From positions 33,418,001-33,482,000 of the forward strand of contig CM069155.1 in NCBI GenBank assembly GCA_035221665.1: 64,000 nt of DNA, read 5' to 3'. Shown here in pieces: positions 10,890 through 49,824 of the stretch. The stretch is from Okamejei kenojei (Eukaryota). The notes beneath the pieces were generated by a model. That model saw nothing but the letters and a program-made list of their open reading frames with translations. It was not told where the DNA came from and searched no databases. Each line of letters begins with the position of its first letter. Within the stretch, counting starts at the first letter, position 1. The position numbers and the translations under genes are program-made.

Positions 10890-11850
10890 GTATGTCTCGT
10901 CCCTGTCCGGAGGTGTCCGAGGTGGCTCTGGGCTGGCGGGGCGGCCCTGGACTTGCAGCTGGCGCTGCAGCTGCTGGCTCCAACTCGACTCTGCCTTTTC
11001 TGCCGGGTTGGCCGGCAGCCCTCCACCACCACCCCCTCCCCTCAGTCCCATACCGAGATCCTGCTGAAGAGGGATCGGAGAGAGAGTCTGTGGACGGGTT
11101 CCTGCCGGCCATGGGCAGGCCGGGCGCCCGCTGGAGCTGCTGGCGGTGCTGGCGGCAACAGCAACCTCCTCCTCCCCCTCCCTTGCCCAGCCCCAAGCCC
11201 AGAGTCCGGGCCAGCTCCAACTCCAGGTCGGGGCTGAAGGCCGCCCGCAGCGCGACCCAGTCGAGCGCTGGGCCGGAGGCCGAGCCCAGGCTGGCTCTCT
11301 GATGCAGGTGAGGCAGGAGGCCTCGCTCCTCCTCGGGTTGTGGATGAAGTGGCAGCGGGTACCGTAGGGGCAGAAGCCAGTGGTGTGCAAGGTGCGGCAT
11401 GGCTCCGTCTTGTACTGGGGTGGTGCCTGATGGAGCGCAGCTCGGCCAGGCCTTGGGCGAACTGGCACTTGTCGCCATAGCGGCTCATCGGGGAGCGGGT
11501 TCCTTTGGAGTTGAAGCGGGGTTGGGCTGGAGTTGGCACTTCTGCACACTAGCTGTGGGCCTGGGGCCACTGGTGTCATCGGTCGGGAGCTGTCGGTTGG
11601 CCCGGCGGGAGAGGCGGAGATGAGCTGGGGTTGGCGTTTCTCCGTGCTGGCTGGGGGCTGGTGTCTCGTCGGTCCGGACCGGAGGGGGACGGGGTCGGCC
11701 CAGTGCCGGTTCGTCAGCGCCGGGGACCCGGGTTCGATCCTGGCTGCGGATGATGCGCGGGTCTGTGTGTGTGCAGCTGCCGAGAATGTCTCTCCACCGG
11801 TCCAGTCCCCGTCCCCCCCCGTCCCTCCAGCTCCCACTAGCATCTGCCCC
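10890..11850 (-). pseudogene. Decayed ZFP36/TIS11-family (ZFP36L1/L2-like) tandem CCCH zinc-finger gene, antisense in ACADS intron 4
   Basis: Split over three frames: [23 protein letters not shown] / [26 protein letters not shown] / [17 protein letters not shown]...[11 protein letters not shown]; very GC-rich relative to host intron; frameshifts and substitutions in key residues. Confidence 0.85.
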
Positions 11851-22628: not shown

Positions 22629-23419
22629 CTAAATGTGAGATTAGCAGCTATGGAAAGCTGTGTAATTTCATTGCTAGGCAGATAGGACATTCCCTCTCGA
22701 AAATAAATGGACAGGGTAGAGGAATCTGATTACATACACGCTTCATGAAGGACTCCAGCTTGGTTAACTGGTCCTTTTATTGTTATAGTGTGTTTTCTAG
22801 GGGCGATCTGCTTAATGTGCTGTAACAGTCAGTTAGTCCTTAAGGTCATTATCTGTAATGCCTTTTCCATGACACCAAGCTTTAGCCGGTACCGGCTGGT
22901 AATGATTTTACATTAGTTTCGCTTGGTTAAATGAACACAAAAGGCACACAGAATAGTAGCAATTTGGTTTCCCATCCATTGCAAGTTTCAATATAAGTTT
23001 GAGGATTTCGGATCACATAGGTGGAGAATGAACATTAATGGAGCGGGAAGAAAGCTAAAGGAATATATAAATGTCTCAATGGTATTTTATTGTCACGTGT
23101 ACCTAAGTGCAGTGGAATTATTATTTACTTTGCATACAGTTCAGTGACAATCCTGCTACATAGGAGGCACAATCATACTAAGTAAGGTAGTAGACCACAC
23201 CACGTCCGCACACAACAGTCGCCATGTTTTGGCGCCTTCTTATTCCCTTCAAGTCCGATATGTTTGGAAAAAGTTAGTCTTAGCTTGGCTTGCCAGACAT
23301 GATATCCGAAAGATCCATTTTTTGATGTTGATTGAGCATATGCTCGGTTATCAAGTTTCTGTGCATCCAGGTCCATGGGACTGAACTTCTGACATTGATC
23401 TTCACTGATATCTGGATCT

Positions 23420-24090
23420 CTTGAGTGACTTCAGGAAGGTGAACCCTCATGAAGTGTCTGCCCCTGATGGTGTACCTGGTCGCGTTCTCAATACCTGCGC
23501 AGACCGACTGGCTGGTGTTTTTGCAGACATCTTCAACCTCTCATTACTGACGCCTGAGGTTCTCACCTACTTTAAAAAGGCATCCATAATACCGGTGCCC
23601 AAGAAGAGTAATTGAGATTCGGTATGTCAACAAATACTCTCTTGAACTTCTACAGGTGTACGGTCGAAAGCATATTGACTGGTTGCACCATGGCCTGGTT
23701 CAGCAACTTCAATGCCAGGAACGAAATAAATTGTGAAGATCGCTGCCCAGCCCGCCATCGATACTGACCTGCGCATCCTGACAACGTCTCATTTCATTCC
23801 TGCCATCGGGAAGAAAGTATAGGAATCTGAACACTGTAATGCCAGGTTCAGGAGCAGTTTCTTTCCAGCAACCATCAGGCTATTGAACACTATAAACTCC
23901 CAAATAAACAAGAGCTGCCTGGATTGCACTGGGGACTTTGACTTTATTTTGATTTAGCACTATATCATTTTTTATTATTGAACTTTTTTTGTTAGGCAGT
24001 GTTTACAAACCTGTTGTGCTGCTGCAAGTAGGCATTTAATTGTTCCGTTCGGAACATATGATGATAAAATACTCTCTGATTCTCTTGACT
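23420..24090 (+). mobile_element. Rex/Babar-type LINE internally deleted fragment
   Basis: PDGVPGRVLNTCADRLAGVFADIFNLSL...IIPVPKK, LNFYRCTVESILTGC, 3' tail. Confidence 0.8.
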
Positions 24091-25221
24091 GCCATGACTT
24101 GTTCAAATGTAGCTCATCTCCCATTTTGGAGGTGCAGCCTGCCATAAACTGGCTTAAACTAATGCAAGCCGCTCATAACATTGGGCCTCTGGATATTCAC
24201 TAAAGGCAGTCAGGCACATTGGATGCTGCAATCAGGATAACGAGTAGGCAGCTCAATTGCACATTTGATGCCACTGAACATTTTCTAGAGCTGTTCAATT
24301 TAACAATGTTTCAAATCGAATTTGTGAAGTATGTGAAAATGAAAAAAATGCATGCTGAGGTGGATTAAAGTAAATCGTTTCAGAACAGGCTGATCGACTG
24401 GTTAGCATCCATCCCGTTATCATTTCTGAGATCTTTATAAGTATATATCTTTCCACCTCAAAAAGACTGGTTTGAATTCATCTTAAACCAATAAATGATG
24501 CCCTTACATAAAATGCAATGGCACAGTTTCAACACAGATTTGTTGTTTAACTCAGAATAACACATCGCTGCTTGGATTTTGACATTGCTTAGTTACAAAT
24601 TGCTCTTTAATTAACATAGAAACATAGAAACATAGAAATTAGGTGCAGGAGTAGGCCATTCAGCCCTTCGAGCCTGCACCGCCATTCAATATGATCATGG
24701 CTGATCATCCAATAACCTCGGTATTACAGCTAGGCACTAATCTTAATGCCAGAATTATCCTTCTTGTTTATGTTTTTCCACCCTTCGCAATGCACTTACA
24801 TCACTAATTTGTGCTGTCTGTATGTTCCCGATTGCGTCTGTCATAGAGTCATAGTGAGAAAACAGGACCTTCGACCCAACTTGGCAACACCGACCAACCA
24901 ACATGTCCCATCCATACTAGTCCCACCTGCCTGCATTTTGCCCATATCCCTATTCTTTCCATGAACCTAGTCTAAATGTTTCTTAAACAATGCGATAGGA
25001 CCTGTCTCAACTACCTCCTCCGGCACCTCGTTTCATACACCGGCCACCCTTTGTGTAAAAAAAAGTTTCCCCTCTGTGTCCTATTAAGTATTTCCCCCAC
25101 CCACCCATGCACCCGTATTGTTCTCGATTCCCCTACTCTGGGAAAGAGACTCTGTTGCGTTTACCCAATCTATTCCTCTCATAATTTTGTACACCTCTAT
25201 AAGATCACCCCTCATCCTCCT

Positions 25222-25361
25222 TCTTCTTCTTCTTTCGTGTGGCATGCGCAGCCTAAAGTTGTTGGACAACTTGTTCTATCTGATCTTCCGTTTGTGCACG
25301 TCGAGTTGATTGCATTAGTTGAAACGGGGCGGACCACGTGAAGGTTGCAATCTCCCACCCC
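25222..25361 (-). mobile_element. 140-bp non-autonomous retroposon: HDV-like ribozyme head + 3' body + (GAA)n tail
   Basis: 15-bp TSD acccctcatcctcct at 25207-25221 and 25362-25376; inserted in a CR1 fragment; near-identical independent copy at 49825-49960. Confidence 0.85.
25308..25361 (-). ncRNA. Putative minimal HDV-like self-cleaving ribozyme (54 nt)
   Basis: GGGGUGG-GA-GAUUGCA-ACC-UUCACGU-GGU-CCGCCCC-GUUUCAA-CUAA-UGCAAUC: P1 7 bp, P2 7 bp, P3 3 bp, 7-nt L3, J4/2 CUAA; manual pairing only. Confidence 0.75.
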
Positions 25362-25827
25362 ACCCCTCATCCTCCTGCGCTCCAAGGAGTAGAGTCCCAG
25401 CCTGCTCAACCTCTCCCTATAGCTCTGGCCTTCAATACATGTTTGTATTTAAAAAATAATCTTTGCCGACAATCTCAGGTTATGTCCATTGTTTACATTT
25501 ATTAATTTTCTTCTTTCATATATTATTGATACATTGTCACATCCACTGGACATCATAGATCGATCGTAATCAATATTCTTGCGATTTATTTATTGTGGTT
25601 CTCGTTAATAGCCTTTGCATCAGTTATGAACACCCAACCTCTGATCCTGCCTGCGAGAAACTGATAAATGAACTTGCCCAGGGTGGGCCTTCCACACATA
25701 CTGAATAAATATCCAGCTCAATGTCAAATGTCAAGCAAGCAATTAGATTAAAAGGTATTTTTAGATGCTTTTGGCGCCAGAGGAGATTGGTATTAAAGAG
25801 GAAGAAGCGATAAGGGTGAATAAGACT

Positions 25828-26126
25828 TTACTTTAGACTTTAGGAATACAGTGCAGAAATAGGCCCTTTGGCCCACCGTGTTGACACCGACCAACCATCC
25901 CTGTCCGGTACACTAACACACTAGGGAAATTTACCATTATACCAAAAAATTAAAGTACAAACCTGTACGTCTTTGGAGTGTGGGAGGAAACCGGAGCACC
26001 CGGAGAAATTTTACGCAGTCACAGGGAGAAGGTACAAACTCCGTACAGACAGCTCCCATAGTCAGGATCAAACCCTGGTTCCTGGGGCAGTAAGGCAGCA
26101 ACTCTACACTGCTCTTCTGTGCCACC
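25828..26126 (-). mobile_element. HE1-type SINE
   Basis: Core and tail similarity. Confidence 0.8.
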
Positions 26127-26237
26127 GAATATTGTGTGCTGCAGATTATTGTGACCGGGAAACTGAAAACAAATGTTACATATTCAGTTTTCATATGTTG
26201 TTGTGCCTGAAGTGTTTTTCTTGCAATACATTTACAG

Positions 26238-26408
26238 GGAATAAGTGCTTTCTTGGTACCAATGCCCACACCAGGGCTCTCCTTGGGAAAGAAAGAAGAT
26301 AAATTGGGAATTCGAGCATCCTCCACTGCAAACCTGATTTTTGAAGACTGCAGACTTCCTCGGGAAAATTTATTGGGTGAACCAGGACTTGGATTCAAAA
26401 TAGCCATG
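26238..26408 (+). CDS. ACADS: ACADS coding exon 6 (intact copy)
   Basis: ttacAG acceptor, GTATGA donor; 171 bp; [57 protein letters not shown]. Confidence 0.97.
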
Positions 26409-27267
26409 GTATGAGCTTATACTATTTGAACATCTATGTATAAAATTTGTTCTGATTGAAGTATGGAATACCACAACTGGCATTTGAACCTTTGGAATTT
26501 CACCTCAGTAATCAAAGGTGTGAACACTAAAACAATGTAATGTGAATCATTGTGTGAGCAGCACCATGTACAGGAACTACCGATGTTAAAGCACAAAGTG
26601 CTGGAGTAACTCAGTGAGGTAGGCAACATCTTTGAAGAGCATGGGAAGGCGACATTTCGGGATAGCACACTTTGGCCTGCCCCCTCCTCTCTCCCAGCTT
26701 TACACCCCCCCCCCCCCCCCCCTTACAATCAGTCTGAGGAAGGGTGCCGACCCGAAATTTGAAACATCACCTATCCATGTTTGGGTCTGCACCCTTCTTC
26801 AGGCTGATGGAGTAGAGGGAGGTTGGTTGTAGAGAGAGGTGAGGGAAAGGGATGGGGCAAGAGCTAGTGATAGGTGGTTCCAAGAAAGGTGGGTGAATAA
26901 CTTCCTCTTTAATAAACTTTGTATGAATGCAAAGAAAATACACAAATATAGTGCAAAATGTGTAACAGAACGCATTGGCTCGGGAATTGATGCAATGAGA
27001 ATTAACATCTAAAGGAAAAGAGCATCTACAGTTTCTCAGTATTATTTCAGTTTAGCTATTAATATTATTAGGAAAACAATAAGAATGTAAGCAAAGTATG
27101 CAAACTTTTTCCCCTGAATCTCAGTGCTTGGAAAAGGTGAGCAGGTTAGAGTATCAACATTGATATGTGAATGTCAAGTCAAGCTTAACGAGATTAGCTG
27201 ATTTTTTAAAAGCAATACTAACGTGGTACATGAACATTTTTCTGAGGATGATATATATGCTGACTGA

Positions 27268-27625
27268 TTATAGAGTAATAGAGTGATACAGTGTAGAAGC
27301 AGGCCGTTCGGCCCAACACGTCCACACCGGCCAACAATGTCCCAGCTACCCTAGTCCCACTTGCCTGCGCTTGGTCCATAACCCTCCAAACCTGTCCTAT
27401 CCATGTACCTGTCCGACTGTTTCATAAACGATGGGATAGCCCCAGCCTCAACTACCTCCTCTGGCAGCTTGTTCCTCAAACCCACCACCCTCTGTGTGGA
27501 AAATGTTACCCCTCGGATTCCTATTAAATCTTTTCCCCTTCACCTTGAACCTATGTCCTCTGGTCCTCGATTCCCCTATTCTGGGTAAAAGACTGTGCAT
27601 CTGCCTGATCTATTCCTCTCATGAT
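27268..27625 (-). mobile_element. CR1 LINE 3' end
   Basis: Reverse RT end and tail. Confidence 0.8.
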
Positions 27626-28713
27626 TTAGCACGCAACAAAAGGTTTTCACTGTACCTAGATCCATGTGACAATATACTAAACTAAACTGTAACTGTATAA
27701 ACCTCCACATAAGATGTTGATAACAAAACTGGGAGGGCCTTATGAACGGTCACTTGAAGAAACAGAACAAATCCCGAGGGACAGAGGGTGCCAAGTGGGT
27801 TAGTGGGGATGTGAGTGGGGTGGGCTGTGGGCATGCAGAGGAAAGAGAGAAAGAGCCGAGGAAGTGACGAGAAGTGGAAGTAGGCACAAGCGAGAGAGGG
27901 AAGGGGAAGAGTCCAGGAGAATGAAAAATCGAAGGGAAAAAAATGGAAGGAGTGTGAGAGCGAAGGGTCAAAGCTGAGAGGTCACACGTGGGAAGGAGAA
28001 GGATGGAGGGAGCTGTAAGAGAGAAAAACGGGGAGATAATAGGGGAGCCAAGAGGAAGAAAGTTGACATACTTTATTTTCCTCTCCTCACTGGTGGCTGA
28101 ATGTTTCTATTTTGATGTTTTTTTTTATTTTTTTGTCTCCAGCTGCCAGTTTTTAGAGTAATGTTAGAGTACTTTGATAACGTTAGTCTTCACCCTACTA
28201 CCACAGGCATTTCCTTGCTTCTCTCCACATCCCCCTCCTAAACAGCTTAAATCACACTTGCTTTCTCACTTTGCCTGCTGAGATAAAAGCTTCTCAACTG
28301 GAAACGTTGTCTCTGCTTCCGTCCCCACGGATGCTACTTGAGCCACTGAGCTTTTTTTGTGTTCTTGTGATATGTTTCCAAAGCAATTTGCTTTTCCATT
28401 TGAACATTTTTAGAATGTGTAAATTAACAAACGTTGAAAGCCTCTGAGTTATAGGATTTGAGAGCATAGTTAGAGAGAGCACGTTTCCCCTGCCAGAAAT
28501 TAAGAATATTCAGCACATAACTATAAATTAGGCTGTTCAACTCGTCCAGAAAGCTGTTAAGTTTTTTCAGTTGAAAATTTCAGGACTGAATTTCACAAAG
28601 AGTATGACGAACAGCTCTCTGTGAGATATATCAATCATGATTTATTTAAATAAAGGTGATATCTACAGCAGTCTGATTATCAAACTTGTGGAACTATTAA
28701 AAAAAACACCAAT

Positions 28714-28975
28714 AGTTTAGGTTAGAGAAACAGCCCCTTCAGCCCACCAAGTCCGCACCGACCAGCAATCTCCCATGCATTAGTTCTATGCTACACATTG
28801 GGGACAATTTCCAAAAGCAAATGAACCTACAAACCTGCACGCCTTTGCAAAATGGGAGGAAACTGGAGCGCCCAGAGAAAACCCATGCAGTCACAGGGAG
28901 AACGTGCAAACTCGGAACAGACAGCCAAACCTGGTCTCAAGCGTGTATGGCAGCAGTTCTACTGCTCCGCGACTC
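28714..28975 (-). mobile_element. HE1-type SINE
   Basis: Diverged copy. Confidence 0.75.
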
Positions 28976-29043
28976 TGCTGCATGCAATAGGGCTCTGCAA
29001 ATGGCCCTCCATGTTTTGCTGCTTTAAGTGAATGAATGTGGTT

Positions 29044-29478
29044 ACATAGAAATAGAAAATAGGTGCAGGAATAGGCCATTCGGCCCTTCGAGCCAGCACT
29101 GCCTTTCAATATGATCATGGCTAATCATCCAAAATCAGTACCCCGTTCCTGCTTTCTCCCCATATCTCTTGATTCCGTTAGCCCTAAGAGCTATATCTAA
29201 CTCTCTCTTGAATACATCCAGTGAATTGGCTTCCACTGCCTTCTGTGGTAGAGAATTCCACAGATTCACAACTATCTGGGTGAAAAAATGTTTCCTCATC
29301 TCAGTCCTAAATGGCCTACCCCCTATTCTTAAACTGTGACCCCTGGTTTTGGACTGTCCCAACATCAGGAACATTTTTCCTGCATCTAGCCTGTCCAATC
29401 GCTTAAGAAATGTATATGTTTCTATAAGATCCCCTTTCATCCTTCCAAATTCCAGTGAATACAAGCCCAGTCGATCCA
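29044..29478 (-). mobile_element. CR1 LINE 3' end
   Basis: DRLGLYSLEFGRMKGDLIETY...NLWNSLPQKAVEA...GY*. Confidence 0.9.
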
Positions 29479-30204
29479 TGGTTGGAATAAAGTGTGGTTG
29501 TCCAGTTGTTTGAATCTTGCAAATCAAGCACTTGTGTAATTGAGCATCTGAGAGGAACAAGTGCATGCCCTCAACAATAGGTCACAGTCTTTATTTGGAC
29601 CTGAATAAGATCATTAATTTCAAGAAAAAGCTTACATCAAGATGTTTAATACATGAAAATGTTGAGGCTTCCTGGTAAAAAACAAACTTCCTCAATTTTG
29701 AAATAATTTTCTTTACACCAGCAAACCTCATGTAGGCATATCCTGATCTACCCTCCAAATAAAAGGCAAGGTGTAAGTGCGGACACAAGAAACTACAGTT
29801 GCTTATTGGCAGGAAAAAACACAAAGTACTGGAGTAACACAGTGGCCCGAAACATCACCTATCCATGTACTCCAGAGATACTGCCTGACCCGCTGAGTTA
29901 CTCCAACACTTTATTTTTTTTTCCAGGTATAGATGTGCTACTTTAAGATGAGCTTGGTCTGATAATTTTACAGAGTACAATATTATAATGCTGTAAAAAA
30001 GCGTGCTAGAGCAACTCAGTGGGTCAGGCAGCATCTCTGGAGAGCATGGATAGGTGACGTTTTGCTTTGGGTCCCTTCTTCGGGCTGGTGTAATATAATG
30101 TTGTTACTTGTTTGTAAAGGCATACTTTTAAATTATATTTTGCTTCATGAAAGCTATGTTTTAATTTTTTTCTTTTGCTACAAATTGTTTTTCTGGTTAA
30201 TTAA

Positions 30205-30912
30205 CCTGAGGTATAGAAGTTGGGAGGTCATGTTGCAGTTGCATAAGACTTTGGTGAGGACGCATTTTGAGTATTGTGTGCAGTTATGGGTACTATGCAA
30301 TAGGAAAGATGTTGTCAAGCTGGAAAAGGTACAGAGAAGATTTACTAGGATGGTGCCAGGACTGGAGAGCCTGAGTTATAGGGAGAGGTTGAGTAGGCTT
30401 GGACTCTTCCTTGGAGAGCAGGAGGATGAGGTGTGATCTTATAGAGGTGTATAAAATCACGAGAGGAATAGATCGGGTAGATACACTGAGTCTCTTGGCT
30501 AGAGTAAGTGAATCGAAGACCAGAGGACATCGCTTTGAGGAGAAGGGGAAAAGATTTAATAGGAACCTGAGGGGTAACTTTTTCACACAAAGGGTGATGG
30601 GTGTATGGAACAAGCTGCAGAGGAGGTAGTTGAGGCAGGGACTATACCAACATTTAAGAATAGTTAGACAGGTACATGGATAGGACAGGGTTGAAGAGAT
30701 ATGATCAAATGCAGGCAAGTGGGACTAGTGTTGCAGGAACATAGACAAAGGTGCTGGAGAAACTCAGCGGGTGCAGCAGCATCAATGGAGCGAAGGAAAT
30801 AGGCAACGTTTCGGGCCAAAACCCTTCTTCAGTTGTAGGGACATGTTGTCCGGTGGGGGCATGTTGGGCCGAAGGGCCTGTTTCTACACTGTATCACTCT
30901 ATGACTCTATAA
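30205..30912 (+). mobile_element. CR1 LINE 3' fragment with Penelope end inserted at about 30732-30832
   Basis: LVRTHFEYCVQLW...LEKVQRRFTRMVPGL...RGNFFTQRV. Confidence 0.85.
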
Positions 30913-31792
30913 CTCTTTGCCTATATGTTCCGTCAAATGGCTTAAGGCATTTCTTGGGTTAGACAAGGAATACAGTGAGCATAGCCATGCATTCAGTGAT
31001 CTATCCTTGGCGTGAGAATGTGAGTTGGAGCCAGAGACCATAAACAAAGTCCTGCTTGGTTGGATTCTCCATGTAGCAACTGAATAAATACATCCGTAAT
31101 CTCTGGATCATAATTCAAGGCATTTAATTGTCATGTTCGAAAGATTAAGTGTTCAGTACAGCATGCCTCTGTGCTCTTTTTAACATCCTATTTTTATTGA
31201 ACACCAAACCTTTTTTTTAGAGCATTCTTGGCCATGAAAGCTAGCTAGTGGAACTGAATTAATTCACCAAGTTTTTTACATTAATTACCGTTTTAATTTT
31301 AGTCGCCTGGTGAGGTATGGGCTAAGGCACAGGGTTTCCAATCTGAGATTGGTGTTCTATTTTTGTGCTTTTTTTCTGATTCTTTGTCACTTGTGAGTCA
31401 TGCACAGTTCATACTATACAAGGTCTATACTTAGACTTGTTCTTGCTTTATAATGTGTTATTTGTTCGCACCCTCTTCAAAGATTTTTCAGAGAGAGAAA
31501 TTCCTTGCCTTTCACTATTCCCTTCCATTAGACTCTTTCCAATTTATAGTACAACAATGCATGATGCAATGAGCTTTGTATGTCCTGCAAGTCTCTCTTT
31601 GTATAAAATATGGGTACAGGTACACCATGGATTTTCCAACACCCTTGGTTCCAGAGCCTTGCCGGATGCTCCATTTTGTTGGACCAACAGAGGTCACGTA
31701 ATAATAATTCAACAATCTGACCCACTAACTAATTGTACCTCTCCCGTGTCTCTTAATCACCATTGGCTGTTAGAAACCTAAATAAAGGATTA

Positions 31793-32095
31793 CTTATTTA
31801 CTGCCTATTCTGCCTCCTGGCATGTAGGGCAGCAACGAAGGTCCTCCACTCAGTAGTGTTGATTCCTTCAGTTGCTGTTTCTGTAACATGTGTGTTTTAA
31901 GAGACGTGGTTGTTAGTCCTGTCCTCAACCTCCAACCTTGAGGACCAGTGGATCGCTCTTCGTCTCGCCTCTGCCCTTCGACCTGTCCAGCATGGCAGAC
32001 CCTAACAGGAGACGAATCTCCCGCTGGCGTAGCTCCAGGGGTCACTGAGACACACAAACTCCCCGACCACGACAAGGCTGCAATCCAACGGGGAG
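31793..32095 (-). mobile_element. 303-bp bipartite RTE-derived non-autonomous retroposon (RTE 5'UTR fused to RTE 3' end)
   Basis: 13-bp TSD aaataaaggatta (31780-31792) / aaatagaggatta (32096-32108); 5' part gccttgtcgtgg typical of RTE 5'UTRs; 3' part encodes WRTFVAALHAR then tandem tail; second copy in duplicated block about 44603-44934. Confidence 0.75.
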
Positions 32096-32536
32096 AAATA
32101 GAGGATTAACAATTAACAAACAAGTTAACAATGAACTCTTTCAGCATGGAGGCACTCGACCCAAAAGGAAGTGCGCCACACAAAATGCTGTCGTAATTTT
32201 GTCTGGAATAATGGAGGTGCCTGACCACCATGCGCTGGAAAATCAGTGGTGGACCTGTATCTAACCATGGGTCCATTTTTGTTGCAGAGGTGTACAGTTC
32301 CAGATTAATATTTGCAAGGGAGAGAGGAGGGAAGGTGGTGCAGGAGACTTTCTTACCCATATTCTATTTGATGCCATGAGATTCATAGGATCTGGAGTTG
32401 ATTTGGTGGATCCCACATCTTATTTCCCACTGTACAACCATTTCTGGTAGGATAGGACGTGCCTAGTGGTTGTGATGGAGGAGTCAGGTACATTGTACGG
32501 AGGGTATCATTTTGTGAGCAGGTTGACAACAGTTAT

Positions 32537-32842
32537 TTCAGTTTAGTTCAGAGATACAGTGAGGAAACAGGCCAATTGGCCCACCAAGTCTGCACCGACC
32601 AGCGATCCCTGCACGTTTACACTATCCTGCACACATTAGGGACAATTTACACATACACCAAGCCAATTAACCTACATACCTGGACGTCTTTGGAGTGTGG
32701 GAGGAAACGGAAGATCTCAGAGAAAACCCACGCGGTCACGTGGAGAACATGCAAACTCCGTACAGACAGCACCCGTAGTCAGGATCGAAACCGGTTCTCC
32801 AGCGCTGTCAGGCAGCAACTCTATCGCCGCGCCAGCGTGCCG
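32537..32842 (-). mobile_element. HE1-type SINE
   Basis: Full-length copy. Confidence 0.85.
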
Positions 32843-33411
32843 TCCACGATTGCGTTAATGTTGTCGACTCTGTAGAGATTGCATCACGTCTTACAACAGT
32901 GCATTTTTGAAAAATCGAAGGCAGGTCGCTTGTTATGAAGGAAGTCCCAGTTAGAGATGGTGGTTGGCAATGTACACTCTTTCTTTCATTACATAGCCTT
33001 GTTTTTAATTCAATGTCTTACTATATTACAGAATCTTAGATAGTTAATAAAGGAGATACTGAGATAATGGCCGCATGATAAAGCGCTTTGGGGCATCATC
33101 TCCCGTCAATATCTTTTTTCCTCTTGCTTGGCTCCTTTTAAAAAAAACACACAAAGACTATCTCAACAATGTTTTGATGATCTGTCCTAATAACGTCTAA
33201 TGTGGCTTGGTGTCAAATTGTTATTGGCAATGCTCTTGTGAAGTGCCAAGAGTTGTTTTATTGCATTGAAGGGAGCGAATAAATGAAAGTTTGTTGATGT
33301 GGTGCGCTGTCTCATAAGACGGGCACAGTTTGCCACACAGGAACATCTGTAGTGAAAGATTGCTGCTTTGAAGGGGGTGGAGGCAACCTGGAACTGTCCG
33401 TGAGCTGTCAC

Positions 33412-33731
33412 GGGCGGTGGCTCGGTGGCGCAGCGGTAGAGCCACTGCCATACAGCGCCAGAGACCCGGTTCGATCCTGACTATCGGTGCTGGTCTATAC
33501 GGAGTTTGTACGTTCTCCCTGTGACCTGCGTGGGTTTTCTCTGAGATCTTCTGTTTCCTCCCACACTCCAAAGACGTACAGGTTTGTAGGTTAATTGGCT
33601 TGGTATGAATGTAAAATGATCCATAGTGTGTGTAGGGTAGTGTTAAAAGTGTGCGGGATCACTGGTCGGTATGGACACGATGGGCCAAAGGGCTTGTTTC
33701 CGCGCGGCATCTCTAAACTAAACTAAACTAA
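33412..33731 (+). mobile_element. HE1-type SINE
   Basis: ggtggcgcagcggtagag head, (ctaaa)n tail. Confidence 0.85.
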
Positions 33732-34029
33732 GTTGCTGGTGTTCATACAACAGGTGGCACTTTCTCCCTTTTTGCTGATCCGGAGCTTGTCTCGAGAGTT
33801 TATTTTATAGTTTGATCTCAATGGTTTAATGGTTCAGTAGTTCTTTATTGCCACGTGCACTGCACAGTGAATGTTTTTTGCGTAGCTTACACATGCACGG
33901 GTCGCCATATTTTAGCGCCATTTGCAAAAGTCCAAAGTCCGTCCGACACGCTCTATATACTGGAGCGACTCCCGATCCAGGTAAGGCCTAGGCTGCTGCA
34001 GGGCCTCCTCTCCTCCCGTTGCCCCGACC

Positions 34030-34845
34030 AAGATTCAAGATTCAAGAGAGTTTATTGTCATGTGTCCCCAGATAGACAATGAAATTCTTACTTTGCTTCA
34101 GCAACAACAGAATATAGTAGCATGAAACAGAATAGATCAGTGTGTCCATATACCATTAATAAATATATACAGACTTGAATAAATAAGCAGATAAAGTGCA
34201 AATAAGCAGATAATGGTCTATTAATGTTTCAGAGTTTTGTTTCAGTTGACTTTAATAACCTGATGGCTGTGGGGAAGAAGCTATTCCTGAACCTGGACTT
34301 GCAGCCCTCAGGCTCATGTACCTTCTACCTGAAGGTAGCAGGGAGATGAGTGAGTGGACAGGATGGCGTGGGTCCTTGATGATGCTGCCAGCCTTTTTTG
34401 ACGCAGCGATAGATCCCCTCGATGGTGGGTAGGTCAGAGCTGATGATGGACTTTTTAAAGTATTTTCCTCTCCTGGCCGCTCAAGTTGCCGAACCAAGCC
34501 AGCATGCTCTCTAGTGTGCACCTGTTCAAGTTAGAGAGAGTCCTAGAGAGAAGAAGAGGTGCTGATGTGCTTTCTTTATAATTGCATCAGTGTTCACGTT
34601 CCAGGAGAGATCTTCAGAAATATGCACACCCAGGAATTTGAAGCTCTTGACCCTCTCCACCATATATTGATATAAAAGGGACTGTGGGTCCCCATCCTAC
34701 CCCTTCCAAAGTTCACAATCAGTTCCATGGTTTTGCTGGTGTTGAGGGCCAGGTTATTGAGCTGGCACCATTTGGTCAGTCGGTCGATCTCTCCTCTATA
34801 CTCTGACTCGTCCCCATCAGTTATACGTCCCACAACAGCGGTGTC
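34030..34845 (-). mobile_element. Rex/Babar-type LINE fragment
   Basis: GRITDGDESEYRGEIDRLTKWCQLNNLALNTSKTMELIVNF; IIKDPRHP.HSLISLLPSGRRY; (ttgaatc)n tail. Confidence 0.8.
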
Positions 34846-35136
34846 TCCTGCTGCCGTCCTTGCAGACGCCGGAGCAATTCCCCGGTCGGTCCCTCTCCTA
34901 CGCCTCGCGTCCGCCGTCGTCAGCGTTTCCCTCCTCCTCAGCTCTTCTTTCTTCGAGGCCGAGCTCGATGGCTACCGAGCTTTCTCCCTTGCAGGCGGCG
35001 GCGCTGCACGGGTCCGTCCTTGCAGCGACGAGCCCTATCCTTATTCCTAATCATTTTTGCAAACCCCGCTGCACACGGGGGCAATTACTGACCGAACACT
35101 TAATGCAGCCCGGCAGACCTAAAATGGCTGTGTCAA

Positions 35137-36084: not shown

Positions 36085-39000
36085 ATGGGGACTGAACTTC
36101 GAAAATTGTTCTCTCTGATAATGAGCGCTTGATGTCTTTTCATGGATGGGAAAACCCTCATGTAGGTCTCCCCTATTGTACTGTCGCGTTCTTCATACCT
36201 GCGCAGACACGACGGCTGGTGTTTTTTTGCAGACATCTTCAACCTCTCATTACTGACAGCCTGAGGTTTCCACACCTACTTTAAAAAGGCAATCCATAAT
36301 AACCGTGCCGCAAGAAGAGTAATTGAATTCCGTATGTCAACAAATACTCTCGTGAACTTCTACAGGTGTACGGTCGAAAGCATATTGACTGGTTCACCAT
36401 GGCCTGGTACAGCAACTTCAATGCCAGGAAACGAAATAAAATGTGAAGATCGCTGCCCAGACCCGCATCGATACTGACCTGCGCATACCTACAACGGGCT
36501 CATTTCATTTCTGCCAACAAGAAAGTTAGGAAAACTGACACTGTAATGCCAGGTTCAGAGCAGTTTCTTTCCCAGCAATCCAATCAGGAAGGCTATTGAA
36601 CACTAAAAACTCCCACATAAACAAGAGGTCTGCTCCTGGATTGCACGAGGACTTTGACTTATTTTTGATTTAGCACATATCATATTTTATTTAAGAACTT
36701 TATTTGTACAGTGTTTACAAACCTGTTTTGTGCTGCCTGCAAGTAGGCATTTAATTGTTCCGTGTATCGGAACATATGATGAGAAAATACTCCTGATGTC
36801 TCTTGACTGCCATGACTTTGTTCAAATGTAAGCTCATCTCCCATTTGGAGGTCACCTGCCATAAACAGCTAAAAACAATGCAAGCCGCTCATAACATTGG
36901 GCTTCTGGATATTCACTAAGGCATCAGGCACATTGATGCAGCAATCAGGATAACGAGTAGGCAGCTCAAATGTCACATTTGATGCCACTGATCACTTTCT
37001 AGAGCTTTAATTTAACAATTTTTCAAACGTAATTTGTGAAGTAATGTTGAAAATGAAAAAAATGCATGCTGAGGTGGGATTAAAAAGTAAATCGTATTCA
37101 GAACAGGCAGATCGACCTTTAGCAATCCATCCCGTATCATTATCTGAGATCTTTATAAGTATATAATTATTTCCACCTCAAATAAGACTGGTTTGAATTC
37201 ATCTTAAACCAATAAATGATGCCCTTACATAAAAAAGGCAAAGGCAACAGTTTCAACACAGATTTTGTTGTATTAACTCAGAATAACACATCCTGCATGG
37301 AATTTTGACATGCTTTTAGTACAAATTGCATCTTTAATTTAACCTAGAAACATAGAAACATAGAAATTATGTGCAGTAGTAGGCATTTCAGCCCCGTCTA
37401 GCCTGCACCGTCCATGTTCAATATGATCATGGCTGATCATCCAATAACCTCGGTTTACAGCTCGGCACTAATCTTAAGCCAGAATTATCCTTCTTGTTTA
37501 TGTTTTTCCACCCTTCGCAATGCACTTACATCACTAATTTGTGCTGTCTGTATGTTCCGATTCGTCTGTCATAGAGTCATAGTGAGAACAAACAGGACCT
37601 CGACCCAACTTATGGCAACACCGTACCAAACCAATCATGTCCCATCCATACTATTCCCACCTGCCTGCATTTTGCCCATATCCCTAATCTTTCCATGAAC
37701 CTAGTCTAATGTTTCTTAAACAATGCGATAGGAAACCTTGCTTCAACTACCTCCTCCGGCACCTCGTTCATACAACCGGCCGCCCCTTTGTGTAAAACAA
37801 AGTTGCCCTCTTGTCCTATTAAGTATTTTCCCCACCACTCACCCATGCACCCTTATTGTCTCGATCCCCTACACTGAAAGAGACATCTGTTTGCGTTTAC
37901 CCAATCTATTCCCTTAATAATTTTGTACACCTCTATAAAATCACCCCCTCATCCTCCTTCTTCTTCTTCTTTTCGTGTGTCACTGCGCAGCCAAATTGTT
38001 GGACAACTGTTTCTATCTGATCTTCCGTTTGGCACGTCCGAGTTGATTGCATTGTTGAAAACGGGGCGACCACGTGAAGGTTGCAATCTCCACCCCACCC
38101 TCATCCTCCAGCTCTCCAAAGGAGTAGAGCCAGCTTGCTCAACCTCTCCTATAGCTTTCTGCCTTCAATACATGTTTGTATTTAAAAAATAATCTTTGCC
38201 GACAATCTCAGGTTTGTCCATGTTTACATTTATTAATTATCTTCTTTCATATATGATTGAACATGTCACAATCCACTGGACATCATAGATCGATCGTAAT
38301 GCAATAATCTTGCGATTTATTTATTGTGTTCTCTTAATAGCCTTTGCATCAGTTTAATGAACACCCAACCTCTGAACCTGCCTGCGAGAAACTGATAAAA
38401 TGAACTTGCCCAGGTGGGCCTTCCACACATACAGGAATAAATATCCAGCATCAATGTCAAATTCACAAGCAATTAGAATTAAAATATTTTTTAGATGGCT
38501 TTTTGGCGCCAAGGAGTATTGGTATTAATGAGGAAGAACGATAAGGGTGAATAAGACTATACTTTAGACTTTAGGAATACAGTGCAGAAATAGGCACTTG
38601 GGCCCACCGTGTTGACACCGACCAAACGCATTCCCTGTCCGGTTACACTAACACACTAGGGAAATTTACCATTATACCAAAAAATTAAGTACAAACCTAC
38701 GTCTTTAGGAGTGTGGGAGGAAACCGGAGCACCCGAGAAATTTTTAACGCAGTCACAGGAGAAGGTACAAACTCCGTACAGACAAGCTCCATAGTCAGAT
38801 CAAACCCTGGTTCCTGGGGCAGTAAGCAGCAACTCTACACGTGCTCTTCTGTGCCACCGAATATTGTGGGCTGCAGATTATTTGTGACCGGGCAAACTGA
38901 AAAACAAATGTTAACATATATCAGTTTTCATATGTTTGTTGTGCCTGTAGTTTTTTTTCTTGCAATACTTTTACAGAATAAGTGCTTTCTTGGTACCAAA

Positions 39001-42000
39001 GGATCCCACACCAGGGCTCTCCCTTGGAAAAGAAAATAAGATAAATTGGGAATTCGAGCATCCTCCACTGGCAAACCCTGATTTTTGAAGACTGCAGACT
39101 TCCACGGGAAAATGTATTGGGTGAAACCATGACTTGGATTCAAAATAGCCATGGTATGAGCTTTACTATTGAACATCTATGTATAAAATTTGTTCTGATT
39201 GAAGTATGGAATACCACAAACTGACATTTGAACCTTGAATTTCACCTCATAATCTACGGTTGTGAACACAAAACAATGTATGTTGAATCATTGCGTGTGA
39301 GCACCCATGTACATGAACTAACCGATGTTAAAGCACAAAGTGCTGAGTAACTCAGTGAGGTAGCAACATCTTTGAAAGCATAGGAAGGCGACAATTTCGG
39401 GAAGCACACTTTGGCCTGCCCCCCATCCTCTCTCCCAGCTTTACACCCCCCCCCCCACCCCCCCCCTACAATCAGTCTGAGGAAGGGTGCCGAACCCGAA
39501 ATTTGAAACATCACCTATCCATGTTGGGTTCTGCACCCTTCTTCAGGCTGATGGAGTAGAGGGAGTGGTTGTAGAGGAGAGGTGATGGAAAGGGATGGTG
39601 CAAGAGCTAGGTGATAGTTGGTTCCAATGAAAGGTGGTGAATAACTTTCCTCTTTAATAAACTTTGTATGAATGGCAAGAAAATACACAAATATATGCAA
39701 AAATGTGTAACAGAACGCATTGGGCTCGGGACTTGATGCAATGAGATTTAACATCTAAAGGAAAAAGCATCTACAGTTTCTCATTATTATTTCAGTTTAG
39801 CTATAAAGATTATTAGGAAAAACAAGAAGAATGTAAGCAAAGGTATGCAAACTTTTTCCCCTGAATCTCATGCTTGGAAAAGGTGAGCAGGTTAGAGTAT
39901 CAAATTGAATATTGAATGTCAAGTCAAGCTAACCGAGATTAGCTGATTTTTTAAAAGCAATACTAACGTGTTACATGAACATTTTTCTGAGGATGATAAT
40001 ATAATGCCTGACTGATTATAGAGTAATAGAGTGATACAGTGAGAAGCCAGCCCCGTTTCGCCCAACACGTCCCACACCGCCAACAATTCCCAGCTACCCT
40101 AGTTCCCACTTGCCTGCCTGTCATAACCCTCCAACCTGTCCTATCCATGTACCTGTCCGACTGTTTTCATAAACGATGGGATAGCCCAACCTCAACTAAC
40201 TCCTCTGGCAGCTTGTTCATCAAACGCCCACCACCCTCTGTTGGAAAATTTACCCCCCTCGGATTCCTATTAAATCTTTTCCCTTCACCATAAACCTATG
40301 TCCTCTGGTCCTCGATTCCCCTATCTGGGTAATAAGACTGTGCATCTGCCTGATAATTCCTCTCATGATTTAGCACGCAGCAAAAGGTTTTCACTGTACC
40401 TAGATTCCATGTGACAATATACAAAACTAAACAGTTACTGTATAAATTCACATTAGTTGTTGATAAAAACTGGGAGGGCCTTATGAACGGTTCCACTTGA
40501 AGAAAACAGAACAAATCATGAGGGACAGAGGGTGCAAGTGGGTTGTGGGATTGTGAGTGGGGTGGGCTGGGGCAGGCAGAGGAAGAGAGGAAAGAGCAGA
40601 GGGAGTGACGAGAAGTGGAAGTATGGACAAGCGGTGAGAGAGGAGGAAGGGGAGAGTCCAGGAGATGAAATAGCGAGGGGAAAAAAAATGGGAAGAGTGT
40701 GAGAGCGGAAGGTGTCAAGCTGAGATGTCACCCGTGGGAAGGAGAAGGATGGGGGGAGCTGTAAGAGAGAAAAGAAAAACGGGGAGATAATAGGGGAGCC
40801 AAGAGGAAGAAATTGACAGTCTTTCATTTTCCTCTCCTCATGGTGGCTGAATGTTTCTATTTTGATGTTTTTTTTAATTTTTTGTCTCCAGCTGCCAGTT
40901 TTTAGAGTTATGTTTGAGTACTTTGATAACGTTTGTCTTCACCCTAACTACCACAGGCATTTTCTTTGCTTCTCTCCACATCCCCCTCCTAAACAGCTTT
41001 AAAATCACACTTGCTTTCTCACTTTGCCTGCTGAGATTAAAAAGCTTCTCAACGAGGAGAAACGTTGTCTCTGCTTCCGTCCCCACGGATGCTACTTGAG
41101 CACTGAGCTTTTTTTGTGTTCTTGTGATATGTTTCCAAAGCAATTTGCTTTTCCATTTGAACATTTTGTGAATGTGTAATTAACAAACGTGAAAGCCTCT
41201 GAGTTATAGGTTTGAGAGCATAGTTAGAGAGAGCACGTTACCCCTGCCAGAAATTAAGAATATTTTTTCAGCACTTAACTATAAATTAGGCTGTTCACTC
41301 GTCCAGAATGCTGTTAAGTTTTTTCAGTTGAAAATTTCAGGACTGAATTTCACAAAGAGTATTGACAAACAGCTCTCTTTGAGATATATCCAATCATGAT
41401 TTATTTAAATAATGGGTGATATCTACAGCAGTCTGATTATTCAAACTTGTGGAACTATTAAAAAAAACGCCAATAGTTTAGGTTAGAGAAACAGCCCCCT
41501 TCAGCCCACCAAGTCCGCACCGACCAGCAATCTCCATGCACATTAGTTCTATGCTACACATTGGTACAATTTCCAAAGCAAAATGAACCTACAAACCTGC
41601 ACGCCTTTGCAAAATGGGAGGAATAATGGAGCGCCAGAGAAAACACATGCAGTCACAGGGAGAACGTGCAAACTCGGAACAGACAGCCAAACCTGGTTTC
41701 AAGCGTGTATGGCAGCAGTTCTACTGCTCCGCGACTCTGCTGCATGCAATAGGGCTCTGCAAATGGCCTCCATGTTTTTGCTGCTTTAAGTGAATGAATG
41801 TGGGTTTACATAGAAATATAAGAAAATAGGTGCAGGAATAGGCCATTCGTGCCTTTTCGAGCCAGCACTGCCTTTCAATATGATCATGGCTAATCATCCA
41901 AAATCAGTACCCCGTTCCTGCTTTCTCCCCATATCTCTTGATTCCGTTAGCCCTAAGAGCTATATCTAACTTCTCTCTTGAATTACATCCAGTGAATTGG

Positions 42001-45000
42001 CTTCCCACTGCCTTCTGTGGTAGAGGAATTCCACAGATTCACAACTATCGGTGGGTGAAAAAAGGTTTTCCTCATCTCAGTCCTAAATGGCCCCTACCCC
42101 CTATTCTTAAACTGTGACCCCTGGTTTTGGGTCGTCCCAACATCAGGAACTTTTTCCTGCATCTAGCCTGTCCAAATCGCTTAAGAAATGTATATGTTTC
42201 TATAAGATCCCCTTTCATCCTTCCAAATTCCAGTGAATACAAGCCCAGTCGATCCATGGTTGGAATAATAGTGTGGTTGTCCAGTTGTTTGAATCTTGCA
42301 AATCAAGCACGTGTAATTGAGCATCTGAGAGGAACAAGTGCATGCCCTCAACAATAGGTCACAGTCTTTATTTGGACCTGAATAAGATCATTAATTTCAA
42401 GAAAAAGCTTACATCAAGATGTTTATACATGAAAATGTTGAGGGCTTCCTGGTAAAAGAAAACAAACTTCCTCAATTTTGAAATAATTTTCTTTACACCA
42501 GCAAACCTCATGTAGGCATATCCTGATCTACCCTCCAAATAAAAGGCAAGGTGTAAGTGCGGACACAAGAAACTACAGTTGCTTATTGGCAGGAAAAAAC
42601 ACAAAGTACTGGAGTAACACAGTGGCCCGAAACATCACCTATCCATGTACTCCAGAGATACTGCCTGACCCGCTGAGTGGATACTCTACCAACACTTATT
42701 TTTTTTTCCAGGTATAGATGTGCTACTTTAAGATGAGCTTGGTCTGATAATTTTACAGAGTACAATATTATAATGCTGTAAAAAAGCGTGCTAGAGCAAC
42801 TCAGTGGGTCAGGCAGCATCTCTGGAGAGGCATGGATAGCGTGTCGTTTTGCTTTGGGTCCCTTCTTCGGGCTGGTGTAATATAATGTTGTTACTTGTTT
42901 GTAAAGGCATACTTTTAAATTATATTTTGCTTCATGAAAGCTATGTTTTAATTTTTTTCTTTTGCTACAAATTGTTTTTCTGGTTAATTAACCTGAGGTA
43001 TAGAAGTTGGGAGGTCATGTTGCAGTTGCATAAGACTTTGGTGAGGACGCATTTTGAGTATTGTGTGCAGTTATGGGTACTATGCAATAGGAAAGATGTT
43101 GTCAAGCTGGAAAAGGTACAGAGAAGATTTACTAGGATGGTGCCAGGACTGGAGAGCCTGAGTTATAGGGAGAGGTTGAGTAGGCTTGGACTCTTCCTTG
43201 GAGAGCAGGAGGATGAGGTGTGATCTTATAGAGGTGTATAAAATCACGAGAGGAATAGATCGGGTAGATACACTGAGTCTCTTGGCTTAGAGTAAGTGAA
43301 TCGAAGACCAGAGGACATCGCTTGAGGAGAAGGGAAAAGATTTAATAATCGGAACCTGAGGGGTAACTTTTTCACACAAAGGGTGATGGGTGTATGGAAC
43401 AAGATGCAGAGGAGGTAGTTGAGGCAGGGACTATACCAACATTTAAGAATAGTTAGACAGGTACATGGATAGGACAGGGTTGAAGAGATATGATCAAATG
43501 CAGGCAGGTGGGACTAATGTTGCAGGAACATAGACAAAGGTGCTGGAGAAACTCAGCGGGTGCAGCAGCATCAATGGAGCGAAGGAAATAGGCAACGTTT
43601 CGGGCCAAAACCCTTCTTCAGTTGTAGGGACATGTTGTCCGGTGGGGGCATGTTGGGCAGAAGGGCCTGTTTCTACACTGTATCACTCTATGACTCTATA
43701 ACTCTTTGCCTATATGTTCCGTCAAATGGCTTAAGGCATTTCTTGGGTTAGACAAGGAATACAGTGAGCATAGCCATGCATTCAGTGATCTATCCTTGGC
43801 GTGAGAATGTGAGTTGGAGCCAGAGACCATAAACAAAGTCATGCTTGGTTGGATTCTCCATGTAGCAACTGAATAAATACATCCGTAATCTCTGGATCAT
43901 AATTCAAGGCATTTAATTGTCATGTTCGAAAGATTAAAAAGTGTTCAGTACAGCATGGCCTCTGTGCTCTTTTTAACATCCTATTTTTATTGAACACAAA
44001 ACCTTTTTTTTTAGAAAAGCATTTTCTTTTGGCCCCATGAAAGCTAGCTAGTGGAACTGAATTAATTCACAAGTTTTTTACATTAATTACCGTTTTAATT
44101 TTAGTCGCCTGGTGAAGGTATGGGCTAAGACACAGGGTTTTATTGTTTTAATCTGAGATTGGTGTTCTATTTTTTGCTTTTTTCAGATTCTTTGTCACTT
44201 GTGAGTCATGCACAGTTCATACTATCAAGGTCTATACTTAGACTTGTTCTTGCTTTATAATGTGTTATTTGTTCGCACCCTCTTCAAAGATTTTTCAGAG
44301 AGAGAAATTCCTTGCCTTTCACTATTCCCTTCCATTAGACTCTTTCCAATTTTAGAAACCCAATTACTGCATGATGCAATGAGCTTTGTATGTCCTGCAA
44401 GTCTCTCTTTGTATAAAATATGGGTACAGGTACACCATGGATTTTCCAACACCCTTGGTTCCAGAGCCTTGCCGGATGCTCCATTTTGTTGGACCAACAG
44501 AGGTCACGTAATAATAATTCAACAATCTGACCCACTAACTAATTGTACCTCTCCCGTGTCTCTTAATCACCATTGGCTGTTAGAAACCTAAATAAAGGAT
44601 TACTTATTTACTGCCTATTCTGCCTCCTGGCATGTAGGGCAGCAACGAAGGTCCTCCACTCAGTAGTGTTGATTCCTTCAGTTGCTGTTTCTGTAACATG
44701 TGTGTTTTAAGAGACGTGGTTGTTAGTCCTGTCCTCAACCTCCAACCTTGAGGACCAGTGGATCGCTCTTCGTCTCGCCTCTGCCTTCGACCTGTCCAGC
44801 ATGGCAGACCCTAACAGGAGCGAATCTCCCGCTGGCGTAGTCCGGGGGTCACTGAGACACACAAACTCCCCCCCCCCCCCCCCCCCCCCTCCCCCCCCCC
44901 GACCACGACAAGGGGCTGCAATCCAACGGGGAGAAATAGAGGATTAACAATTAACAAACAAGTTAACAATGAACTCTTTCAGCATGGAGGCACTCGACCC

Positions 45001-48000: not shown

Positions 48001-48180
48001 TGTCTTCGAGGCCGAGCTCGATGGCTACCGAGCTTCTCCCTTGCAGGCGGCGGCCTGCCGGGTCCTCCTTGGCAGCGACGAGCCCTATCCTTATTCCTAA
48101 TCATTTTTGCAAACCCGCTGCACACGGGGCATTACTGACCGAACACTTAATGCAGCCGGCAGACCTAAAATGGCTGTGTC
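36085..48180 (+). repeat. Direct copy of 23375-35134 (probable overlapping contig/haplotig end)
   Basis: Colinear over about 12 kb including exon 6 and all repeats; indel density highest next to the gap. Confidence 0.9.
38977..39153 (+). pseudogene. ACADS: Second, indel-ridden copy of ACADS exon 6 inside the repeated segment (probable assembly artefact)
   Basis: Colinear with 26238-26408 but with many 1-2 bp indels and no open frame; flanks also duplicated. Confidence 0.85.
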
Positions 48181-49730: not shown

Positions 49731-49824
49731 CTGCTTTGTCTGAAGCACAATAGGATACATTTATTTGTAAAACCATTGTACATATATAGTCATACAGCTG
49801 TCGAAACAGACCCTGTGGCCCACT

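Follow-up and report, generated by a model that had tools for sequence, protein, structure and literature searches.

Our work indicates that a 140-bp insert in the genome of Okamejei kenojei is, by comparison of its sequence with that of a LINE in the same genome, an internally deleted bipartite derivative (SIDE) of that LINE, hereafter the parent. It is probably a short Vingi-like derivative that keeps the two ends of the LINE: a predicted HDV-like ribozyme, a clasp, a 3′ motif and a GAA tail. The element shares its ends with the parent, the junction in one subfamily (subfamily C) lies at a microhomology, and the copies are dispersed, end at G1 and carry TSDs of 8 to 15 bp. The element belongs to a kind that is already known, the bipartite LINE derivative or SIDE with a 5′ HDV-like ribozyme, because it is a deletion product of a LINE whose ribozyme it inherited.

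The analysis started from a window of 64 kb, in which the insert occupies positions 25222 to 25361 on the reverse strand. It carries a (GAA)n tail and is bracketed by identical 15-bp TSDs, one downstream at 25207 to 25221 and one upstream at 25362 to 25376, the latter adjoining G1 of the ribozyme. An earlier note on this DNA had described exactly this arrangement, and its parse of an HDV-like fold agrees with the sequence at every helix strand. All parts of the element read on the reverse strand. The predicted ribozyme, which is minimal, P4-less and derived from the 5′ end of the parent, spans 54 nt (25308 to 25361), with the predicted cut just 5′ of 25361. P1 pairs nt 1 to 7 (25355 to 25361) with nt 30 to 36 (25326 to 25332), and P2 pairs nt 10 to 16 (25346 to 25352) with 25308 to 25314. 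P3 (3 bp) and L3 (7 nt) lie at 25333 to 25345, G37 and a 6-nt remnant stand where P4 would be (25319 to 25325, with a UUCG loop in most copies), and J4/2 at 25315 to 25318 reads C-U-A-A (C-G-A-A in subfamily B), its first position, 25318, being the predicted catalytic C44. The ribozyme is followed by a remnant of the parent 5′ UTR (25290 to 25307) with the predicted 5′ arm of the clasp (25293 to 25300) and by a remodelled middle (25263 to 25289) that is confined to subfamilies A and B and stands in for a segment with a T4 run in the parent and subfamily C. The 3′ end of the parent (25237 to 25262) comprises the last ORF codons, a TAG stop (25253 to 25255) and the 3′ UTR, with the 3′ arm of the clasp at 25243 to 25250, and the (GAA)n tail (25222 to 25236) is like that of the Vingi-like families of the same genome.

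The host site is a LINE fragment, the reverse transcriptase 3′ region (reverse strand, approximately 25110 to 25435), that we label CR1-like. An empty site with one TSD copy is present in 10 other loci of the 449 fetched, exactly so in L215, and empty-site joints that skip 155 nt (140 + 15) occur in contigs of three of four sequencing runs. The stretch itself is present whole or in part in 23 of the 24 runs listed (7 organism codes, 10 studies), with at least half of its words in 13; no RNA run is among the listed ones that contain it. As the earlier note had it, there is no tRNA, 5S or 7SL head: a tRNA search on the element found none, and Rfam scans over 1.5 kb around it and of a sister copy (L003) gave no 5S, 7SL or tRNA match. 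A 20-codon ATG-to-TAG frame in the window copy is taken to be incidental; subfamily B lacks it.

The reading of the head as a minimal HDV-like ribozyme is supported by a strand-order descriptor and by the conserved topology, cleavage being predicted. The descriptor requires the order P1-P2-P3-L3-P3′-P1′-(P4)-J4/2-P2′, with which the element complies; it gave a single match in the 64-kb window, exactly at 25361 on the reverse strand. The window was also shuffled 30 times at the dinucleotide level, and neither strand of the shuffles gave a match. Conservation was assessed in 63 full-length copies, the sample left after removal of one duplicated locus. The 7-bp P1 opens with G1, which forms G1·U36 in 50 of these copies and G1-C36 in the window copy. 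The 3-bp P3, the 7-nt L3 and the 1-bp P1.1 (C22-G37 in 60/63) are all present, and J4/2 follows the C-N-R-A pattern, with C44 in 58 and A47 in 60 of the 63. All 18 pairs together with C44, A47 and G25 are intact in 27/63. Within the ribozyme, the differences between subfamilies either concern nt 8 and 45, which are unpaired, or preserve a pair, U5-A32 of subfamily C and the parent being U5·G32 in subfamilies A and B. When 30 nt of native flank was included, P1 was favoured in 27 of 58 copies. Nested folding of the element, a method that cannot represent the pseudoknot, showed no unusual stability (z +0.85).

The Rfam models of HDV ribozymes are family-specific, include P4 and leave out the pseudoknot. 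A scan over 1.5 kb around the element found neither a ribozyme match of this type nor a hammerhead, and two loci of the 140-bp family gave no ribozyme match in a scan of 14 loci. Sister copy L003 matched the HDV-F-prausnitzii model over exactly nt 1 to 54 (18.5 bits, E 0.11), the best score of the element's ribozyme and below the gathering score of 44.

The distance between P1′ and the catalytic C is 7 nt, against 18 to 47 nt in the other 13 rows compared, so P4 is absent and the fold is as small as the earlier note had proposed. The same shortness, set against 18 to 47 nt in all other families, would fit a catalytically dead fold that shrank from an active ribozyme by loss of P4 and now binds a protein or blocks an exonuclease, and some well-folded SIDER heads are reported to be inactive in vitro (PMC4035085). 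We consider this improbable, given that P4-less minimal ribozymes are reported to be active (PMC10879173), that the catalytic C, the J4/2 pattern, L3 and the G1·U pair are kept in the parent and the subfamilies, and that the ends of the elements coincide with G1 in every multi-copy family.

Covariation also supports the fold. The test paired the 5′ strand of each family with its own or a swapped 3′ strand in 10,000 permutations. Across the seven rows of this genome, own pairing was matched in 46/10,000 permutations for P1 and in 12/10,000 for P2, the latter partly circular, with P2′ ends picked by eye; P3 showed no significant covariation in these rows (1,407/10,000). Several rows of the test were off-register, and the families are related to each other. 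P1 is the clean test because its 5′ strand is fixed by the element boundary. The covariation of P1 and P2 that the earlier note had named as a check was thus found, and with eight metagenome rows added the result was 0/10,000 for each helix. The descriptor also matched upstream of 6/24 related metagenome ORFs (five of them distinct) and gave no match on reverse-strand and coding controls; the 24 loci scanned were those with an N-terminal match, out of 75, and some lie on contigs without the 5′ end. A stricter version gave 4/26 metagenome matches, and about five more metagenome loci fit the HDV topology by eye.

The element is one of a large family. In the 2.76-Gb genome, a 26-nt pattern taken from the ribozyme matches exactly at 6,684 places and a 28-nt pattern taken from the body at 7,494; neither reversed control has a match. 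Both patterns occur together in 34 of 70 loci, which gives about 13,800 copies of subfamilies A and B, probably a low estimate. What had been proposed as a SINE-like family is a family of non-autonomous retroposons with a high copy number, about 14,000, and many of its copies have the TSD and tail that mark their own retrotransposition. There are three subfamilies, with pairwise identities of 0.938 (A, that of the window copy), 0.905 (B) and 0.875 (C). Subfamily C is rare, with 33 exact matches to its 3′ pattern; the pattern was tried as a route to the LINE and led to none, the 30 of 33 matches examined being 28 short copies and two 5′-truncated ones. Some short copies (L022, L294) have inserted beside or within another short copy, or within the 5′ UTR of the parent LINE.

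The 5′ ends of the copies are fixed at G1 and not random. In a sample of 70 copies chosen by their 3′ ends (the first 70 of 100 listed body matches, all on contig 1 and unselected on the 5′ end), 58 align from nt 1 and 64 from nt 1 to 4; five are 5′-truncated and one is interrupted, and the TSDs measure 8 to 15 bp. Among 130 distinct full-length copies, the TSD adjoins G1 in 81, lies 1 nt off in 19 (that nucleotide being G in four) and 2 to 7 nt off in three, and was not found in 27. A search for a far TSD in these 27 copies found none, so no 5′ transduction was seen. G1 is the end of the element in every family with multiple copies. The base 5′ of G1 in the 81 TSD-abutting copies is T in 48, C in 17, A in 13 and G in 3, a bias that likely reflects the preference of the endonuclease, with G partly masked by the G run, and that may also suit cleavage.

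An internal promoter would explain fixed 5′ ends just as well. The chief rival explanation is a dual use of the head as in Pr77 of L1Tc: the head would be an internal Pol II promoter that starts at or near G1, and the ribozyme would be a back-up, a protector of the 5′ end or an aid to translation. The first 77 nt are reported to act as both promoter and HDV-like ribozyme in Ingi/L1Tc, the sister clade (PMC4035085). The lack of 5′ transduction among the 27 copies without a near TSD agrees with such a promoter, and the thousands of dispersed copies suggest efficient sources. On the other side, the families keep the fold although their heads are very different in primary sequence. An extra G copied from a cap is also missing, 81 of the 103 TSD-bearing copies having no extra nucleotide and four a single extra G; this argument is weak, and cap copying depends on the RT. 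We regard dual use as possible though rather unlikely; it is compatible with cleavage and would take away only the word promoterless, which the earlier note had applied.

Transcription by Pol III from chance words in the head that resemble A and B boxes, with the ribozyme as an inherited passenger of subfamilies A and B, is very unlikely. It would account for a T4 run, a Pol III stop signal, being present in the rare subfamily C and the parent and absent from the abundant subfamilies A and B (one copy of each checked, together with the alignment), and a TTCGA word lies at nt 39 to 43. The box matches are poor by eye, however, with three and two mismatches to the consensus boxes, and the words are inherited unchanged from a 3-kb parent. 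Moreover, neither a tRNA nor another Pol III head was found, subfamily C spread despite its T4 run, and the changes in subfamilies A and B spare the ribozyme pairs.

The parent is a decayed LINE of about 3.1 to 3.5 kb in the same genome, with a single ORF for APE and RT. Its head is the 54-nt P4-less ribozyme of the short element, and its last ~40 nt are those of the short element as well; having both ends in common with one autonomous LINE is what defines a SIDE. The earlier note had supposed that the element just borrows a LINE; instead it is a deletion product, with a ribozyme inherited from the 5′ end of the LINE. A search for an autonomous LINE sharing the 3′ 85 nt was among the checks that the note proposed, and the LINE was found, the shared 3′ part being the last ~40 nt. 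In locus L194 the ribozyme core and 5′ UTR run into the APE domain and, in inverted arrangement, the C-terminal region ends in the element's last ~40 nt. This locus was reached with a pattern joining the ribozyme core to the start motif of the endonuclease, which gave three matches, one of them real; the other two were chance. For relatives of L194 there were 49 candidate 5′ parts and 751 candidate 3′ parts, 40 of each being scored. Not one of the 20 parent loci examined retains an intact ORF. The nearest intact relative is P0001 (75% identity, 1,019 aa), which has the Pfam domains PF00078, PF14529 and PF03372 only and no RNase H. A single ORF with APE and RT and without RNase H is hence the layout of the parent, as read from its broken pieces and from this intact relative.

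Subfamily C consists of the first ~95 nt of the parent fused to its last ~40 nt, stop codon included, at a 2-nt microhomology. Subfamilies A and B retain ~72 nt of the parent head and the same 3′ end, with the middle remodelled. We infer that the parent gave rise to subfamily C by plain deletion and that B and A, with their remodelled middle, came later. Pairwise identity of parent copies is 0.90 to 0.92 in best-match samples and overlaps that of subfamily B. Copies of subfamily A are somewhat younger than those sampled from the parent, and they may therefore have been driven by a sister family (V2, 0.94; V4, 0.96; V3b, 0.985) or else by late parent copies; V2, V4 and V3b end in a similar terminal motif and GAA tail.

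Several other routes to the parent were followed. The sister families V1 to V5 were rejected as the direct parent, their heads and UTRs being different, and the best 30 PF14529 matches were one Nimb-like family without any match to the element. Sampling of 20 lower PF14529 matches yielded L138, a single-ORF APE and RT element, and a protein search with L138 yielded several related families. A pattern of the tail plus LNRLRTG had no match in the genome; the parent reads differently there. The locus used for a 1.7-kb DNA search contained an unrelated 370-bp repeat, which swamped its matches. A Nimb-like two-ORF LINE family (L121 and L091-L120) with a 1,276-aa open ORF2 has a (GAA)n tail, too. 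In many parent copies the 5′ part is inverted and the ribozyme lies at the internal junction, like twin priming (L194, L297, L300, L301 and L302; by eye also L238, L240, L241 and L245-L248).

The sister families V1 to V4 and V3b start with the HDV topology in other sequence and with P4 regions of 18 to 47 nt, as does the truncated V5; the 7-nt gap is confined to the parent and its derivative among the families compared. Two Vingi-like families with ribozymes of their own are young, V3b (L190, L161 and L168; identity 0.985) and V4 (L179-L185; 0.96), and are possible recent drivers. The RTs were placed in a tree of 27 rows (one short row dropped). The parent, five sister families and the metagenome elements with ribozyme heads fall into one clade (100/100), separate from rows to which we gave our own labels of Nimb-, CR1- and L2-like; none of the rows is a named Vingi, Ingi or RTE element. 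Metagenome elements are interspersed between the six families of this genome in the tree, P0001 being the sister of the parent, and repeated horizontal entry of Vingi-like families is possible. A PDB search returned only RTs of L1, R2 and group II introns. Some of the Ingi ribozymes of Ruminski 2011 may belong to Vingi elements.

We take the parent clade to be Vingi, a label that is very probably correct and that we give because of the layout, which RTE shares, because of its motifs, and because of the likeness between the heads of L348 and Vingi-2_Gav. A partner of the RTE type, as the earlier note had suggested, is thus not favored in a tree without an RTE reference, and the partner appears to be Vingi-like instead. 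The layout of the parent fits the description of Vingi in PMC13708176, and the head of L348, a member of the same RT clade, resembles nt 2 to 74 of Vingi-2_Gav by eye (PMC5786205, supplement).

We predict that the 5′ and 3′ ends of these elements form a clasp. A 6- to 8-bp Watson-Crick stem, with different letters in each, is present in 6/6 autonomous families (L231/L262, L149/L138, L189/L177, L171/L187, L190 and L182/L179); its 5′ arm starts 6 to 11 nt past the ribozyme, and its 3′ arm ends 0 to 10 nt before the terminal motif. When own and swapped arms were compared, with the two ends taken from different copies in five families, own pairing stood at 1/720 permutations by duplex energy with both window sizes and at 4/720 or 1/720 by longest run; the 30/30 windows were picked after seeing the data, and 60/50 windows gave 4 and 1 of 720. 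Two of the six clasp words are palindromes. The short element retains both arms, and copies of subfamilies A, B and C fold the arms together.

These features suggest how the element might spread. We hypothesize that a source copy lies within a Pol II transcript that is read through, and that the RNA, once cut by the predicted ribozyme 5′ of G1, would have a compact 5′ end without a cap. Supplied in trans, the Vingi APE/RT protein would recognise the clasped ends and the tail, and the RNA would be inserted by target-primed reverse transcription. Its ~140 nt would usually be copied in full, so that most copies would have a complete ribozyme and some could become new sources.

Bipartite LINE derivatives are known from several systems, including NARTc and RIME (L1Tc/ingi), the R2 SIDEs and derivatives of Vingi-1_EE (PMC5786205, PMC4035085, PMC3414825). 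Like these, the element consists of the ends of an autonomous LINE joined by internal deletion, has neither an ORF nor a Pol III head and shows the TSDs and tail of its parent. Its 5′ HDV-like ribozyme is predicted, whereas those of NARTco, SIDER2 and the R2 SIDEs are active, and SIDE ribozymes are reported to cleave in vitro (PMC3414825, PMC4035085). The element is smaller, with 140 bp compared to the 529 bp of R2Dwi_SIDE, and its ribozyme has 54 nt and no P4, compared to 77 nt or more in the SIDEs. It also differs from them in its vertebrate-type host, its dispersal and its about 14,000 copies. HDV-like ribozymes were noted in some SINEs and in hundreds of genomic copies in a review (PMC6765202). 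The Vingi LINEs Vingi-1_Acar and Vingi-2_Gav (the latter 3,128 bp) resemble the parent in being compact (~3.1 to 3.5 kb), in having a single ORF with APE followed by RT and in giving internal-deletion derivatives; neither a 5′ ribozyme nor a clasp of the two ends is described for them in the parts of PMC13708176 and PMC5786205 that were covered. The fold itself is closest to drz-Mtgn-1 and the theta ribozymes, which are P4-less nested double pseudoknots with the catalytic C first in J4/2. Such minimal ribozymes were reported to be about 99% phage-borne, in a survey with a small eukaryote sample (PMC10879173), whereas the fold described here stands at the head of a LINE and of its SIDE, in an animal genome of 2.76 Gb. 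Classical SINEs and retrozymes are likewise short, non-coding, high-copy and mobilised in trans. Unlike the former, the element has no tRNA-, 5S- or 7SL-derived Pol III head; unlike the latter, it is of HDV and not hammerhead type and occurs as monomers with TSDs, no tandem or LTR-like arrangement having been seen. Full-text searches of the literature, mostly at the level of abstracts, found no report of the 140-bp family, of a clasp, of a Vingi ribozyme or of HDV-like heads in the sister families and metagenome relatives.

The same comparison provides a lead on the CPEB3 ribozyme. The head of L348 (L348:2117-2189; the same element is in L349), about 230 nt upstream of a Vingi-like ORF, matches the Rfam model of this ribozyme, RF00622, with 55.6 bits (E 7.5e-15; cut-off 35), and L344 matches it with 27.7 bits. 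By eye, the RF00622 consensus is matched nearly letter for letter at the 5′ end of Vingi-2_Gav and in the part of alligator SINE2-1_AMi that derives from Vingi (PMC5786205, supplement), in SINE2-1_AMi including the P4 stem. The main text of PMC5786205 does not mention CPEB3, and the CPEB3 ribozyme was reported without an outgroup outside mammals in the portions of PMC8233481 covered. The ribozyme in the window has no match to RF00622; the ribozyme of its family shares with that of CPEB3 the topology, the G1·U36 wobble and an L3 identical to the Rfam consensus, and differs in that the latter has a P4 stem and exists as one conserved copy in an intron (PMC8233481). These likenesses make descent from a Vingi head the likely origin of the CPEB3 ribozyme, which would then be an exapted relic of a Vingi 5′ end; the alternative is that the two converged because the fold is constrained. 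Full-text searches, mostly covering abstracts, returned no paper naming both CPEB3 and Vingi. The broader picture is that Vingi-type LINEs are a clade with a 5′ HDV-like ribozyme and a clasp, that the 140-nt element is a stripped-down cis module seeding thousands of intact 54-nt P4-less ribozymes, and that the CPEB3 ribozyme is an exapted Vingi 5′ end; taken as a whole, we give it about an even chance of being right.

The element would narrow the cis needs of a LINE to about 140 nt, namely a ribozyme, a 5′-3′ clasp, a terminal motif and a tail. Why only few LINE clades yield bipartite derivatives was called unexplained by Kojima 2018 (PMC5786205), and the cis-module view offers a testable reason. 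Gene-writing templates based on Vingi carry both UTRs (PMC13708176), and the view is relevant to them too. The known range of P4-less HDV-like ribozymes would widen from phages to an animal genome with an estimated 14,000 copies. Roughly 4 in 10 of these have an intact structure (27/63) and, where they lie in introns in sense orientation, could cut host pre-mRNAs. For the CPEB3 ribozyme, the LINE relatives make its origin directly testable.

The copy in the window differs from the family majority at nt 36 (C), 42, 82, 114 and 118. The majority base at nt 36 is U (53/63 copies), giving the G1·U wobble. The upstream TSD has a G-rich 3′ end with which an alternative P1 is possible, and in nested folding the probability of P1 drops from 0.99 to 0.04 on adding 30 nt of flank; an alternative P1 of such a kind is reported to slow the CPEB3 ribozyme about 250-fold (PMC8233481). 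The 3′ arm of the clasp is weakened by two changes. Because of G1-C36, the P1-displacing flank and the two clasp changes, the window copy is probably a poor ribozyme that leads to no further copies.

Other features of the window deserve mention. A tandem duplication of ~12.7 kb (23377-35134 versus 36088-48180) has 93 to 95% identity and about 400 gap openings, an error pattern that suggests an unpolished assembly duplicate. It contains a second, indel-rich copy of the element with the same flanks near 37960-38097. A third copy, an independent member of subfamily A with its own TSD, lies at ~49823-49960 on the reverse strand and has one P3 change, to a wobble pair. An ORF with CCCH zinc-finger motifs is found at ~10900-11500 on the reverse strand and resembles the ZFP36/tristetraprolin family.
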